From Candidatus Obscuribacterales bacterium (GTDB taxonomy: Bacteria > Cyanobacteriota > Vampirovibrionia > Obscuribacterales > Obscuribacteraceae), in assembly GCA_965228855.1 (NCBI GenBank), contig CBDDIJ010000002.1, positions 1,888,001 to 1,952,000 on the forward strand: a stretch of 64,000 nucleotides of DNA. The letters run 5' to 3'. The position numbers were made by a program. Positions 33,001-39,000 of this stretch are shown piece by piece. Each line of letters begins with the position of its first letter. Positions within the stretch are counted from its first letter, which is position 1.

Positions 33001-36000
33001 TGCCGTCACCGATTGCGGTGTAGAAGGGAACGCTATCCAGGATGTAGAACCCTGCCACCACCGATGATATCGCGATGACGCATCTTTGATACCACTTGTA
33101 TTTCTTGCTTTCTACAATGGACTTGAAGATTGCTTGAGCGCGCTTGAGTTTCTCTTTCATGCGAAATCCAATCAAAAACCGCACGACAGGTCGTGAAAGG
33201 CAGTCTGTTCTACGGTTTTTGTACTAAGGTTTTGGAAAGGCGGCTAAGTCCGCCTGCAACAGACTAAGTGTTGAATTGGTTGAAGTCAAGCGGGGTAAAC
33301 CCTGAGGTCGTTTATGTTTAAGAAACTCGGCATCCTGAGTCTGAATGAACGGTGTCAGGGCATCATGAGACGCCCGCTCGCATCGAGTTTGATGCAGCAG
33401 CCAATTGTCGGGAATGAGCGCCGACTGTCAGCGGGCTTGTTAAAGCAACGCATTCTGTTTCCTCCTGCAGTGAGATAAATTGGTCATGAAGAAGTTGGGT
33501 CGCGCGACTAGAGTCGGCTTCATCTATGAGAATTGAAATGGTCGACTCGCTGCTTGAATAGAGTCGCGGTTCAATTCTTGCGGAATTCAGGGTGGCAATT
33601 GCGCGCGAGCGAATCTCAGGAGCATTACCGATTCCCGCACCGACGAGACTAACTCTAGTGACGTTCAAATCAATGAGAACGTCTTTTGCGCCGCACTGAT
33701 TTTTCAAGTCCTCCAGAATCGTTCTAAAGATTGCTTCATCGGAATATCTCAATGAAAGCTGCACGCAGCGCGTGTTTTCGCAAGACCCTTTGCCTTGGGA
33801 AACACTGTCGACGATTATGTTGTCGCGAATGAAGAGAGTTTCGCATTCGGTGAGGAACGAGAACTGCCAGGGAATATCGATGAATGATACGTATGCTTGA
33901 TGCGAGTCTAATGCGACTCCTTTGACTCTACAAACCTTTTCCACGTTACTGTCTCCTGTAATGAGAGTGCCCGGATTGTCCGGTTTAAAAGTATTTCTGA
34001 CACGCAGCTTGATGCTGAAATCTCTGGCGAGTTCTGCAGCGCGTGGATGCAGTACCTGAGCGCCTGCTCGTGCGAGTTCAATTGTTTCCGAGTACGATAT
34101 GGTGTCGAGCAATTCCGCTTGTTGAAATTTGTTAGGGTCGGTCGTGAATATTCCATCCACGTCCGTGTAGATGTGGCATTCATCAGCACCTGCGGCAGCA
34201 GCCAGGGCTACGGCGGAAGTATCGGAACCGCCGCGACCGAGTGTTGTAATTTCGCCGCAATCGCTTTGTCCTTGAAACCCGGCCACAACGATCACGTCGT
34301 GCTCATCGAGAGCGGCACGAATTGAGCCTTTGCATATATCAACGATGCGAGCGCAACTGTGGATATTGTCGGTTTTAATTCCGATTTGGGCTCCGGTAAA
34401 TGACTTAGCTTTTATTCCGCGTTCCTGTAACGCAATAGTCAGAAGTGCGATGGAAACTTGTTCACCGGTCGAGAGCAGAAGGTCTACTTCGCGCTTGTTG
34501 GGTGTCGTTGAGATTCGTTTGGCCAGATCGTACAGATAGTCCGTTGTATCGCCCATCGCCGATACAACTACTACGCATTTATTTTTCTGTTTGGAAACGA
34601 TGTCTACAACGTGATTGATGCGTCCGATGTTTTTGACGGATGTGCCACCAAATTTGAGAACCGAAATCTTGCTCATCGCTCCTCCTATTTTGTTTGCACG
34701 AGTGCACGTTCGACTGTGCGAGTTTCCAGCTTCGAATTCACGTCTGTGCTTTTGTTGGTCAGGCTTTGCTGATTGCATGGTGAACCGGAGAGCGCCTGGT
34801 CGAGATCGGCGATCAAGTCTTCGGCTTCTTCGATGCCGGGCGATAGACGAATTAATCCGTCCACGATGCCGCAGTGTTCTCGGATCTCTTTCGGTATCGG
34901 TTTGTGCGTCATCGTTGCTGGATGGCAGATAAGCGATTTAACTCCGCCAAGGCTTTCTGCCAGTTGGAATAAGTTCGTCGAGCTGACCGTGTTTGCCGCG
35001 AAATCAATTCCGCCTTTAACGACGAAAGAAACCATTCCGCCGAAACCGCTCATCTGTTTCGCTGCGAGTTCGTGCTGCGGGTGGCTTGTTAAGCCGGGGT
35101 AGTGAACTGTTTCGACATTCGGATGCGATTCCAGGAACTTCGCTATCGCGAATGCGTTTCGTTCATGCTCTCTCATGCGTAGTTTCAGAGTCTTTAATCC
35201 GCGAAGGACAAGGAAGCAATCGAATGGTCCGGGAACCGCTCCAACAGCGTTGTTGTGGTATTGCAATCGTTCATAAAGATCATCGCTCGATGTGACGATG
35301 GCACCGCCAATGACATCACTATGTCCGCCCAGGTATTTTGTGGTGCTATGAATTATGACGTCGGCGCCAAGTTCCAGTGGTCTTTGGAAATAGGGAGTAG
35401 CAAAAGTGTTATCGACGGCAAGGCGCAGCCCATTTGCATGACAGAGATCGGCGATCGTTCTCACATCAGCTAATCGAAGCAATGGATTCGTCGGTGTTTC
35501 GATCCAGACCAATCGAGTTTTTTCGTTTATAGCCTGTTCAATTTCTTCTATGTTGCGTGCGTTTACGTAAGTGAATGATAAACCGTAGCGTGTTAAAACT
35601 TGCTCGAATAGCCTGTAGACGCCACCATAGACATCCTCTCCCACGATGACGTGATCGCCTGCCGACAGCAGATTTGTAACGGTATAAGCGGCGGATAGTC
35701 CGGACGCGGACGCAAGTGCGTACTTTGCGTTTTCCAGTGACGCAATACATTGTTCCAATGCGGTTCTTGTCGGATTGTGCGTGCGAGCGTATTGATACCC
35801 TTTGTTTACTCCAAGTTCGTCGAGAACGAATGTGGAAGTTTGAAATATCGGTGTGTTTAGTGCTCCTGTGCTTGGATCTGCGTCTTGACCGGCATGAATA
35901 GCGCGGGTTGAGAACTGCTGCTGGTTATTGGGATATTGATTGTAAACACTCATTGGCGTAACTCCTGTGTGTGTGAATGCGAAAAAACGCCCCCTCTCAT

Positions 36001-39000
36001 CCGAGAGGGGGCGTTGAAGTTCTTGATTCTGTTAGCTAATTTCTTATGCTATAAACCGTGAACAGCAACGCCACCCTCTCGCGGAGGGCATTTGCATTGC
36101 CATAGACATAGTCACGTGTTTTTGCATGCCACCATTATGGTCGAACGAAATACTTTGTCAAAGGTTAGCGCGCTCTATGTAACGTTGCTGCAATCTCGTT
36201 CCATATGTATGCAATTTCGATCTGGTTTCAAGATTCGACTTGCTGATGAACTGCAGCAGTCTAGAGTTTGGACTGAGCTGAGATAATGAAGTCCATTGGA
36301 TCCTTGTCTTCACTTTTGAGTGACGTAGCATTTATACACTCTGTCATCAATCCGCATTTTGGAAGAGCTGCGCGAATTCGAGCCTCGGTCGCCTCGGTCA
36401 TGTTGCTGTAGAGAATGCCTGTTTGACTCAGTTTTCGCAGGCTGAGCAGAGTATGGTAAATCGCCTTCTCTGATGCTTTGATGTGACTGAGGTGTAGTGC
36501 CTCCAACTTTTTCAGCTTACTAATTACTTCCAGATCGTTATCATCGAGTGGAATGCCTCCCAGGCTGAGCTGCTGCAGATTGGGGCATTTTGCTATTAGG
36601 GGCACGGTCGCGCGTGTTGTTTTTGTGCCGCTCAACCCCAGGGCTTTCATTTTGGCGCCTTTTTTAGTTGCCACCAATTCGACCGTTCTATCCGTAATTT
36701 CCGGACAATCATTCAATTGTAGGTCGTTCAGTTTCGGAAGTGACAGGAGCTTTTCTACGCAATCATCATCACAGGGCGTTGAGTTTAGTACGATACCTTC
36801 AAGTGTTCGACATCCGCTGAGCACTTTGATACCGTTCCTGGTGATATCGGTGACGCCGACGCTCAAGAATTTGAGCTTCGGAAAGCGGCATAGTTCTGCC
36901 ACGACTTCAGGGCTAATATTTTTGCAGTTATCCAAATAAAGCGACTGAAGATTTTTCATCTTCTTGAGCTTTCGAACTTTTGCGAGGGTGATGTTGGTAT
37001 CTTGCAGCGCCAGCTTTTCAATGTTATCCAGCTTGACCAGTTCTGCGAAGCCCGCGTCAGTCAGGTTTGTCGCTGACAGGTCCAGGATTGTCACATTTGG
37101 CGTTCTCAGGTACTTCAATCCGGTTCCAGTTATGGAAGTGTGGTTCAAACTTACTGGAAGAATTTTGTCTTTGTATGTGTAATTCTGGAAGCAAACCAAT
37201 TCTTCATCTCTAAGCAATGTCGAGTTGTACGGCGTATAGTGCTGCTTTGGTGAACGCTCCATGTAATCAGAGTCGCCGCTAGAGTGAAAGAAACTGCTTA
37301 TTTTTTTTGGTTTTTCTGTTATCGGTTTGATCTTGATTGACTCTATGTCGTCCATCCCCGACGTCTCTACTTTTGCGCTCTTTATCGACTTGTCGTGACG
37401 TTTGAATCCGGAGGCGGCTTTAGCTGCCCCGCTATGAGGATCGTGTAGGACAAATGCTGCAAGCCCAAACGCCGCCGCGAGAATTCCGCCGACCGCGACA
37501 ACTGGAAGGGCGGCATGGATGACTCTCAGCGTCATGAATACTTTGTCGCGCTTCGTCGACTCGGTCTTTGCACCACCGGCAGTGCTATCCGGTTTCGCTT
37601 CCAAATCGTGCTTCACTCGCGAAAGCGTCTCCCTGACTTCGATGACACTTTGTGGGCGATCCTTCGGATTTTTCGAAAGCATCGAGTCAAGCAAACGATC
37701 CAGCTGATCGGGAATTTCCCATGCGGGTGCCAGTTCCGAAAGTAGTGGCGGCTGTTGATCAATGTGCTGGCGAAGCAGGTCAAAAATATCTTCGCTGTAA
37801 AACGGGGTCTCGCCGGCTATCATTCGAAAGGCGATACAGGCTAAACCGTAAATGTCGGAGCGTTCGTCACCCAGTCGACCTTGCGCCTGTTCCGGACTGA
37901 TGAACAGCGGGCTCCCGATTGCGGCTCCTGTATCTGTTCGTGATTTCTCCTGGTCGGGATCTTTTGCAAGACCGAAGTCCACTACAACCGCAAGCGGTTC
38001 CGTATCAAAATTTTGCACCATTATATTCGACGTCTTCAGATCTCGATGAGCGATGCTCTTTGAATGCGCGCTCTTTAATCCGTCGCAGATCTGAATCATT
38101 AGATTGAGCGCCAGAGGCAGGGGCAGGCGCCCTTCTTGTTCAATAATTTCGTCAAGACTTTTTCCGTCGACGAAACTCATAATAAGGTAGGCTCGATTCT
38201 TGTGAGTCTTGCCAAAGTTGAGAATCGAAACCAGGTTTGGATGATCTAGCTTGGCGGCGGACTTTGCTTCCTTTTGAAAGCTGATCAAGCCGCGTTCATC
38301 TATATGGCGTAAAACCTTGATAGCGACTCGCTTGTCAAGGTTGCTGTCGTGTGCGCTGAATACTGATGCCGTGGCGCCGCTGGAAATGTAGGTAATATCG
38401 CTGTATCGAGAACCTAGAGCTGACGCGACATCGTCAGGCATCTGGTTTGAATTGAGGCTTTTGATAGCTCTCAAAGTGGGATTCCTCGGGGCTCTAGGGA
38501 TTCGAATGCATGGTCGCAGCCGAGCAAAGCTCTTGCGAATACGCAATGCTGTACCAGAAATATATTCCACGGGTATATCGGTTTTTCGCGTCTAAATTCT
38601 GCTCGAAATCCAGAAGAGGCAAGGGCGCCCGGATTTCGATCATTAAACTTTCACGCAGCGTTAAGACCACAACGTTTAGTTGAATAAAGACTACGAGCCA
38701 GTCGCCTATTTACTACCAAATGTGATCGACTGTGTGATGAGGAACGGTCACTTTCGTAAACGTAACCGACATGCGGTAAAACGTCGATCCGGCTACCGAG
38801 GCTCAACCATTCGAGTTCACGGTGCGTTCACTCGGGCTGTATCATCTCCAGGCAGTCTTCGACGTTATCACCACTTTTGGGTTTGTTGCCCGGCGTCATA
38901 AACATGCAGTCTCGCCATCGTCTGCGAAGTTCGTCTACGGACTCTGTCGGCGCATCTATTGAAAGCATGAAAATTTTGCGCATGTTTTTCAGCTTGTATA

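Follow-up and report, generated by a model that had tools for sequence, protein, structure and literature searches.

What governs the expression of a transsulfuration gene and of the aspartate kinase gene behind it in a member of the Obscuribacterales? The question is raised by a 64,000-nucleotide stretch of the genome of a Candidatus Obscuribacterales bacterium (the window; positions are counted along it), where the two genes stand one after the other on the minus strand (Table 1). A genome-wide survey's note had read the region ahead of them as a leader-peptide attenuator sensing methionine. Frame bias, the geometry of the switch, the link to the metB-like and lysC genes and the presence of sister attenuators all support this reading. 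It is highly probable that the element acts as a ribosome-mediated transcription attenuator sensing charged elongator tRNA-Met. Methionine is an awkward case for leader attenuation: the same amino acid starts the leader.

Table 1. Features of the attenuator and of the genes downstream (positions in the window)
Feature	Position	Strand	Remarks
-35 box TTGACA	36156..36161	-	sigma-70-type promoter; promoter scan
-10 box CATAAT	36134..36139	-	promoter scan and relatives
Leader-peptide ORF	36044..36127	-	27 codons, MQKHVTMSMAMQMPSARGWRCCSRFIA; no Shine-Dalgarno sequence, probably leaderless
Regulatory Met codons	36089..36109	-	codons 7, 9, 11 and 13; M-x-M-x-M-x-M
Segment 1	36084..36103	-	Met codons and CCCUCC; predicted 1:2 hairpin with segment 2 when ribosome-free (length-wise folding)
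Segment 2	36053..36081	-	purine-rich core and extension, inside the ORF; antiterminator 5' strand
Segment 3	36002..36029	-	antiterminator 3' strand; distal part is the terminator 5' arm
Intrinsic terminator (3:4 hairpin)	35982..36015	-	13 bp, GGAU loop, six U's, about -26.5 kcal/mol
RBS AGGAG of the metB-like gene	35966-35962	-	
MetB-like PLP-dependent transsulfuration enzyme	34685..35953	-	422 aa; first regulated gene; PRK07811 match
Aspartate kinase lysC	33363..34676	-	437 aa; 8 nt after the metB-like gene
Weak terminator-like hairpin after lysC	33175..33195	-	consensus match only

The operon, its promoter and the start of the leader

The note had named the first enzyme cystathionine gamma-synthase. 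It does pass the PRK07811 cut-off (523 bits against 513), but the model leaves the name unsettled, because a paralogue linked to cbs also passes it and scores higher still (558). Searches for metX and metA in this genome, which is 95% complete, found neither, and it is context that suggests the reaction of the enzyme and its biosynthetic role; the leader itself marks which of two similar transsulfuration paralogues is likely to be the biosynthetic one. The lysC gene, whose start is most likely 34676, behind AGGAGGAG, rather than 34778, is one of five aspartate-kinase-like reading frames in the assembly; inspection by eye showed no leader ahead of the others, nor ahead of metH or metG. The hairpin beyond lysC might be the end of the two-gene transcript.

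Upstream and on the same strand lies a Ser/Thr kinase gene (38570-36261), and the element could be taken for the mere terminator of that gene, or for a constitutive short RNA, its methionine-rich ORF being there by chance. Yet a promoter stands between the kinase gene and the element. Near-consensus and of the sigma-70 type, as the survey had it, it counts 11 of 12 consensus matches, the best of five promoter sites when positions 33000-36600 were scanned, and a TTGAC/TTGCA-type -35 box is found again in most relatives. Moreover, what lies upstream varies from relative to relative, whereas the element remains attached to the operon and is retained before lysC even where the metB-like gene is missing (loci L187 and L194). 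The chance of meeting at least four methionines in 26 codons is 0.0016 for a single ORF, and 17 genera show the pattern. Chance and a mere terminator make an explanation that is improbable in the extreme.

Transcription would be expected to start at, or adjoining, the A of the ATG at 36127, which sits 6 nt past the -10 box. This ATG is in frame with a shorter ORF of 21 codons (36109-36044), the one described in the note: the four methionines among its first seven codons are present, but the start belongs further upstream, at 36127. With a search pattern permitting 5-8 nt between -10 box and ATG, the spacing was 6 nt in 23 of 51 loci and 7 nt in the other 28. Because the conserved start is this upstream ATG, 6-7 nt past the -10 box, translation of the leader most likely begins without a 5' untranslated region. 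Position 36109 was discarded as the main start, since the in-frame ATG upstream is conserved at its -10 spacing and the number of methionine codons downstream varies.

Spread of the element and constraint on its frame

Leader and terminator precede all 51 sampled loci of one branch of transsulfuration enzymes, from 17 Obscuribacterales genera, and none of the 19 cbs-linked paralogues, from which the leader-bearing enzymes stand apart in a quick tree (SH-aLRT 98). The lysC gene follows in 49 of the 51. The note had recorded the element ahead of the orthologous gene at nine loci of nine, whatever the upstream neighbour; the count is now 51 of 51. The survey was also right that the element is real beyond this genome, but its count of 9 among 104 genomes was far too low: a sequence model has matches at E<=0.05 in 63 of the order's 107 genomes, with E<1e-5 in 60 of them, the 46 training sequences matching their own model by construction. 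At class level, two of the six matches that were fetched (L219 and L223) were bare terminators. In all comparisons between leaders, the relatives are kin, not independent samples.

The leader is constrained as a coding sequence. In 46 distinct leaders, ATGs are in frame rather than out of frame by 174 to 5 (101 to 3 in 24 representatives), and early stops, absent from the leader frame of all 24 representatives, occur in 20 and 9 of them in the other two frames. Methionine makes 15.7% of leader residues against a genome background of 2.0%; threonine makes 7%. The codons that separate the AUGs vary freely, and six of the 51 leaders have only one or two methionines in codons 2-18. A loose control test for methionine-rich upstream ORFs was positive at both Obscuribacterales loci and at 1 of 78 loci of other taxa. 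At 51 loci, then, pathway-cognate codons cluster in a short conserved ORF.

Could the peptide itself be what matters? In plants, the MTO1 region of cystathionine gamma-synthase undergoes nascent-peptide arrest in response to a metabolite. The target enzyme is similar here and a loose M-x-M-x-M-P-S motif recurs, as might be expected if the nascent peptide arrested the ribosome on a metabolite such as SAM, methionine counting as a piece of peptide sequence. However, methionine is the only constant residue: the last one may be followed by P, R, L, S, T or A, the spacers vary, and the P-S codons are accounted for by the pairing of CCCUCC in segment 1. Such an arrest is very unlikely.

One would hardly give more credit to a riboswitch or a protein-bound leader in which the ORF is incidental, even though methionine genes are often controlled by SAM riboswitches or T-boxes and the RNA is strongly structured. 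The reading-frame bias is not expected of an aptamer. In addition, the alignment shows nothing like an aptamer core, conserved and unpaired: its columns are 49% identical on average, and those that never vary are mostly AUGs. Nor does any Rfam family reach its gathering score in 12 loci. The note had reported no family at E<=1 in this region; weak matches do exist, 11 of them at E<=10, all far under gathering scores and two at E<0.3, and the alignments displayed draw chiefly on the terminator. Such weak, sub-threshold matches, among them PyrG leader, PyrR and Phe leader, were rejected as identities. SAM families were absent from the matches at E<=10 here and, at gathering level, from the 12 loci. 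In the genome as a whole, no SAM-I riboswitch was found, and no T-box (RF00230) in a search that was positive in 5 of 14 controls.

Alternative helices and the position of the ribosome

An intrinsic terminator lies between the leader and the first gene. With a 13-bp stem (36015-35986) followed by six T's, it ends some 30 nt short of the ATG at 35953, the distance that the survey had given, and a terminator hairpin with a T-rich tail is found in 51 of 51 loci (-14.9 to -27.2 kcal/mol), with compensatory changes in the RNAalifold consensus. The alternative partner proposed for its 5' arm inside the leader ORF is there too, at 36081-36066. Terminator and antiterminator exclude each other, and a 1:2 helix is supported by RNAalifold consensus pairs (columns 64-67/76-79). 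At about -41 kcal/mol the antiterminator is stronger than the terminator, and the stop codon of the leader falls within its hairpin. The strong folding that had been noticed (z -6.7) is confirmed: over 178 nt z is -6.56, none of 200 shuffles is as low, and the minimum free energy structure is the antiterminator form.

Covariation lends moderate support to these alternative helices. Segment 2 pairs with its own segment 3 at -26.9 kcal/mol against -20.2 across genera, and for the part outside the terminator the preference for its own partner has a permutation p of 5e-5; the own segment 3 is the best partner in only 6 of 24 cases, and the inner extension of the window's element does no better than shuffles (p 0.72). 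On a MAFFT alignment, percent paired and covariation score exceed shuffles (0 and 2 of 500 reach them), while pairs with two-sided change are not above shuffles (5 against 7.3), these pair counts being blurred by register slips in purine and pyrimidine runs.

When the ribosome is simulated as a mask on the leader RNA, folding yields the classical 1:2, 2:3, 3:4 switch, with antiterminator predicted for a ribosome at the regulatory codons and terminator for one at the stop. In the window's own leader, the probability of the terminator is 0.77 with a ribosome at the first methionine, 0.00 at the last but one, 0.05 at the last and 0.98 at the stop. The energy gap is minimal at the last methionine with a 6-nt mask, or one codon earlier with a 9-nt mask, both for the window and for the median of 24 leaders. 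In modelled nascent RNA, all 46 leaders sequester the terminator 5' arm more with the ribosome at the last methionine (median 0.91) than at the stop (0.15). At equilibrium the terminator is still favoured (P>0.8) with a ribosome at the last methionine in 17 of 46 leaders, and the usual kinetic argument is therefore required. Nascent ribosome-free RNA likewise sequesters the arm (median 0.90, the stalled state exceeding the free one in 4 of 46 only), so that the model can tell a stalled leader from one that the ribosome has passed, but not from an untranslated one. For the window's ribosome-free RNA, the terminator has a probability of 0.69 at equilibrium, and 2:3 is the minimum free energy structure for transcripts of 118 to 138 nt.

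A scenario may be proposed from these models. RNA polymerase would start on the leader AUG or right beside it, and the leaderless 5' end would take up a ribosome. With plentiful methionine, this ribosome would clear the four AUG codons and occupy segment 2 up to the stop; segments 3 and 4 would then form the terminator, and transcription would end some 30 nt short of the metB-like gene. With scarce methionine, it would stall on the last AUG codons, where it masks segment 1 but not segment 2; the long 2:3 antiterminator would then fold before segment 4 has been transcribed, allowing read-through into the metB-like gene and its dedicated aspartate kinase.

The presence of this kinase raises the question of a broader signal, either the aspartate family of amino acids (threonine, lysine) or the general speed of translation. 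Leaders of one genus (g7) have at least three threonine codons directly before the methionine cluster, and that of another (g2) reads K-R-K-M-Q-M-R-K-P, with lysine where others have methionine; three g2 genomes tested have two aspartate-kinase matches, against four in two others. But the sole threonine codon of the window's leader, with a gap of +11 to +13 against -2.5 kcal/mol at the last methionine, is off the switch, its Cys-Cys pair lies outside the range of the switch at +26.5 kcal/mol, and threonine is less than half as frequent as methionine among leader residues. A broader signal is thus an unlikely reading. Sensing of cysteine through the Cys-Cys pair was rejected as well: a ribosome there covers segment 2.

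Returning to methionine, a wider conjecture, which we put forward as tentative and rather doubtful, would combine several features. Methionine-codon attenuation would be a general control of sulfur amino-acid genes in Melainabacteria, the non-photosynthetic sister group of the cyanobacteria, replacing SAM riboswitches there. It would be leaderless in Obscuribacterales, led by a Shine-Dalgarno sequence or even in tandem in other families, with a scaffold open to recoding and an unusually strong antiterminator avoiding superattenuation. If this were true, starvation that blocked initiation of the leader would leave an untranslated RNA that reads through instead of superattenuating. The recoding envisaged is from methionine to methionine and cysteine before cysDN, and possibly to methionine and lysine where the linked kinase may have a part in lysine supply as well.

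Relation to known leaders and to others in the genome

The classical leader-peptide attenuators are those of trp, his, leu, thr, ilv and pheA in E. coli and Salmonella (Elf and Ehrenberg, PMC1183508). With the scheme given there the present element shares the clustering of cognate codons in segment 1, the exclusive 1:2, 2:3 and 3:4 pairings and a terminator before the first gene. Unlike these attenuators, it has AUG as its cognate codon, is apparently leaderless, belongs to Melainabacteria, and is predicted to hold its stop codon within a long antiterminator stronger than the terminator. The survey had placed methionine outside the classical set. This holds for the E. coli set, but methionine leaders have already been proposed in print.

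Campylobacter jejuni MetL, a proposed methionine attenuator, also puts a methionine-containing leader ahead of a gene for a Cys/Met PLP-enzyme (cj1727c); a short terminating RNA and a Ribo-seq initiation peak have been detected (PMC3847290; PMC11955535). It differs in being led by a Shine-Dalgarno sequence, with 20 residues, three methionines including the start, and a range given there as three Campylobacter species only. Our leader has no ribosome-binding site, and the two are likely of independent origin, because the MetL peptide, compared by eye and not by alignment, is unlike it. Closer in its start is Deide_09379 of D. deserti, the metG leader, one of 14 putative attenuator peptides (PMC4007540, Table S9): it is leaderless, with methionine codons and a start mapped at the AUG, but it concerns control of a synthetase rather than biosynthesis, and as prediction only. 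The Streptomyces lividans metL before metNIQ is another leaderless, methionine-containing putative attenuator (PMC8079986, Table 4); it differs in that control is of transport and that no intrinsic terminator was found there. As far as these sources go, the three published methionine leaders stand at the stage of prediction, with neither structures nor responses put to a test. For mycobacterial poly-Cys leaderless sORFs, sensing of a sulfur amino acid by ribosome stalling has been shown experimentally (10.1101/834739). They would resemble our leader in all three respects, but sense cysteine and act on translation: they hide a Shine-Dalgarno sequence and have no intrinsic terminator. It counts against the present reading that leaders of similar appearance in Streptomyces did not pass codon-mutation tests (PMC1262725).

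Our literature search found no experimental proof of a methionine-sensing leader peptide, although attenuator surveys in subscription journals may list methionine leaders, and no report of leader-peptide attenuation in the sister group of the cyanobacteria. The element is of value as a comparative case of unusual completeness, together with copies recoded for cysteine and possibly lysine, and an apparently conserved serine attenuator. With a complete four-segment design in 150 nt and about 50 natural variants, the element makes the question of methionine directly testable.

Two genome scans for leaders gave many chance candidates, and only those before recognisable amino-acid genes were kept; one rich in threonine, valine and methionine (contig C2, 585194) was a simple repeat. 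Similarly built leaders stand ahead of leuA, thrS, serS and hisG, for leucine, threonine, serine and histidine, respectively. The serine attenuator ahead of serS is apparently conserved; with it, the methionine element would extend classical attenuation to the sister group of the cyanobacteria.

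The leader upstream of the metB-like gene and lysC

The element is encoded on the minus strand and has as neighbours a Ser/Thr kinase gene (end 36261) and, downstream, the gene of a 422-aa PLP enzyme, metB-like; the second downstream gene, which starts 8 nt past the first, scores as aspartate kinase (lysC). The closest named records, at 86-87% protein identity, come from Obscuribacter/Obscuribacterales and are filed under Melainabacteria. The feature is real, and the attenuator mechanism proposed in the genome-wide survey's note is the best reading of it, provided that start and spread are corrected. 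The 21-codon ORF described there is present, but it is the internal part of an apparently leaderless ORF of 27 codons.

Leader features in the window and leaders of the same build elsewhere in the genome (G000)
Feature	Location	Strand	Remark
-35 box TTGACA	36161	minus	promoter-like site
-10 box CATAAT	36139-36134	minus	with TTGACA, best promoter-like site in 3.6 kb
Leader ORF, 27 codons, MQKHVTMSMAMQMPSARGWRCCSRFIA	36127-36044	minus	ATG 6 nt past the -10 box
Terminator hairpin, 13 bp and six T's		minus	ends about 30 nt before the metB-like gene
PLP enzyme, 422 aa	35953-34685	minus	scores as cystathionine gamma-synthase-family
Thr-run leaderless leader and terminator	G000:C3:2639751		before thrS
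Leu-run leaderless leader and terminator	G000:C3:3640841		before leuA
His-run leader and terminator	G000:C3:1552604 region		before hisG

Three genes for Ser/Thr kinases whose C-termini resemble leucine-rich repeats stand upstream (36261-43817: 38570-36261, 40972-38828 and 43817-41997). This cluster is unrelated to the attenuator.

Spread and coding constraint

Searched at the protein level, 301 genomes of the class gave 550 matches; among the 150 listed, 70 loci were examined (the top 50 and 20 picked from the next ranks). A short ORF 6-7 nt past a -10 box, then a terminator, was found in 51 of them. The 19 loci that lack this arrangement all stand directly behind a cystathionine beta-synthase-like gene, a position found for none of the 51, and a single branch (SH-aLRT 98, quick tree) parts the two groups. 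lysC comes next in 49 of the 51 leader loci; of the other two, one meets a contig end and one has no lysC. A sequence-only model built from the 46 distinct leaders, which come from 17 genera, matches 63 of the 107 genomes of the order at E<=0.05 and 60 at E<1e-5, its training genomes included; these matches cover 22 of 38 genera and 0/3 in the second family of the order. The survey's note gave 9 genomes; the figure now stands at about 60. A loose Met-rich-uORF test, run as a control, was positive in 2/2 Obscuribacterales loci and in 1/78 homologous loci of other taxa.

Thirteen further model matches were fetched and sorted by downstream gene. Six (L190, L195-L199) precede metB-like genes, one of them judged from the gene start only, and two (L187, L194) stand directly before an aspartate kinase gene. 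The same-build leader L188 (G264:C60:18622-18777), before cysD-cysN, alternates Met and Cys codons and is a Cys/Met-recoded copy of the element. At L189 and L191, before a 167-181-aa gene of no assigned family, and at L192, before a PLP-dependent decarboxylase gene, leaderless ORFs containing His/Cys/Met/Arg codons are followed by terminators; the match at L193 is spurious.

Of the ATGs within the 46 leaders, 174 are in frame and 5 are not (101 versus 3 in 24 representatives chosen to cover the genera), and a stop falls within 20 codons in 0/24 representatives in frame, as against 20 and 9 in the other two frames. Met makes up 15.7% of leader residues versus 2.0% in the genome's long ORFs; codons 2-18 hold at least three in 45 of 51 leaders, two in 5 and one in 1. 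Judged by its codons, the leader is coding and has been selected for Met, and that the hairpin which follows should be a plain terminator is scarcely credible. Met is the peptide's only conserved residue, those in the spacers being variable; SAM-dependent arrest by the nascent peptide is very improbable.

The leaders of genus g2 (L030-L034, L037) have only 1-2 Met, flanking Lys/Arg codons and Lys in the last-Met position; aspartate-kinase matches are 2 in three g2-leader genomes versus 4 in two other genomes. Met/Lys co-sensing is possible there.

A predicted four-segment switch

The leader RNA can be modelled as a four-segment switch. With no ribosome bound, the purine-rich segment 2 has the Met codons and the CCCUCC behind them as its partner, at about -31 kcal/mol when the ORF is folded by itself. 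The alternative 2:3 pairing, the antiterminator, reaches -41 kcal/mol; the terminator, at -26.5 kcal/mol, takes its 5' arm from the distal part of segment 3. The 178-nt leader folds as the antiterminator with z = -6.56 (0/200 shuffles as low). A ribosome in fast passage would sit on segment 2 and the terminator would form; stalled on the last AUG codons, it would leave segment 2 free, the antiterminator would form, and the metB-like gene and lysC would be transcribed. In all likelihood, we infer, this is a classical attenuator reading Met-tRNA.

The ribosome was modelled as a mask that reaches 6 nt beyond its A-site codon. For the leader in the window this gives a P(terminator) of 0.69 with no ribosome and 0.98 with one at the stop; a ribosome at the first Met gives 0.77, and at the last two Met codons the value falls to 0.00 and 0.05. 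On nascent RNA, the terminator arm is more often sequestered with the ribosome at the last Met than at the stop in 46/46 leaders, the medians being 0.91 and 0.15. When all codons are scanned with this mask, the antiterminator-terminator gap is minimal at the last Met (window -2.5, median +2.9, compared with about +14 upstream and +20 downstream); a 9-nt mask moves the minimum to one codon before it. A broader sensor, of the aspartate family or of translation speed, is unlikely beside a minimum so placed. Two results count against the switch: in 17 of 46 leaders a ribosome on the last Met still leaves P(terminator) above 0.8 at equilibrium, and nascent RNA that carries no ribosome is antiterminated to the same degree as stalled RNA. 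Classical leaders, according to PMC1183508, superattenuate when leader initiation fails; the window's RNA, by contrast, keeps 2:3 as its minimum-energy fold at transcript lengths of 118 to 138 nt.

Covariation is supportive but moderate, kinship inflating all its figures (duplex energies, pair counts, RNAalifold). With that inflation, cognate 2:3 duplexes have a mean of -26.9 kcal/mol, against -20.2 +/- 5.0 in 536 cross-genus pairs, the own segment 3 being best partner in just 6/24 leaders, while the part of 2:3 outside the terminator gives -7.9 versus -6.3 (permutation p 5e-5), ranks in the top tenth in only 5/24 and in the window is no better than shuffles. Likewise inflated, the MAFFT alignment beats shuffles in percent paired (0/500), two-sided-change cells (0/500) and covariation score (2/500), with no excess in the number of two-sided-change pairs or of pair types, and the RNAalifold consensus holds the 1:2 hairpin and the terminator with compensatory change in 5/10 pairs.

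Genomic context, precedents and other leaders

The 95%-complete genome yielded neither a SAM-I riboswitch nor a T-box, Rfam gave no family at its cut-off at the window's leader or in 12 loci, and leaders of the same build stand before leuA, thrS, serS and hisG, with runs of Leu, Thr, Ser and His. For these reasons the context favours sensing by the ribosome; a structured leader bound by a metabolite (riboswitch) or by a protein is most improbable. Because the genome has five aspartate-kinase-like ORFs (one on a small contig of the 5.8%-contaminated assembly) together with metH, a Met-dedicated aspartate kinase is plausible. Despite metH and a Met-linked transsulfuration enzyme, no metX, metA or metE was found in the genome. 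The family model does not separate the metB-like enzyme from the cbs-linked paralogue. Plants use O-phosphohomoserine as substrate; that the metB-like enzyme does so would be a guess by analogy.

The Ser-run leaderless leader with terminator precedes one of two serS paralogues (G000:C3:873576-873727, L072 and L248; also L249-L262). A script found it in 13/15 loci of that paralogue, the remaining two showing Ser-codon runs by eye, and 0/10 loci of the other carry it. It is a candidate serine attenuator, of which a literature search by title or abstract found none.

Met leader attenuators have been proposed in three published cases (PMC3847290, PMC4007540, PMC8079986). A short terminating RNA upstream of cj1727c carries Campylobacter jejuni MetL (PMC3847290), which has a Ribo-seq initiation peak, a second Met-rich candidate standing upstream of a Met transporter gene (PMC11955535); D. 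deserti has a listed leaderless leader of metG (PMC4007540) and S. lividans a listed leaderless metL, without terminator (PMC8079986). The literature searched, with most subscription journals outside it and those papers seen in part, yielded no Met-response test of a proposed Met leader, and no paper on Melainabacteria, attenuation and leader peptide together. The Met attenuator class is not categorically new, and next to the published predictions ours is a further, probably independent, instance. Compared with proven attenuators, the predicted Met signal, the leaderless start and the phylum-level group are new; the window offers a clean, easily tested case of Met attenuation.

A class sample of 151 genomes gave one match outside the family at E<1e-5. 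Six matches were fetched, of which four are Met-rich leaders, each with a terminator; a Shine-Dalgarno-like AAGGA stands upstream of three of these, tandem pair included. That pair (L218:970-640, G001:C76, minus strand) is two leader-plus-terminator units before a 109-aa protein with a Gly-Gly end, sulfur-carrier-protein-like by eye and with no Pfam match. The Met-rich leaders with terminators at L220 and L222 precede hypothetical proteins of 569 and 432 aa, the shorter one with no NCBIfam match; their placement suggests that these long proteins may take part in Met supply. Among 20 metY loci, a Met- or Met/Cys-rich leader with terminator occurs in 10/10 of one genus and in one other, the remaining 9 having no clear leader; these Met/Cys-rich leaders (L225-L234, L243), from another family of the class, mostly carry a Shine-Dalgarno-like sequence.
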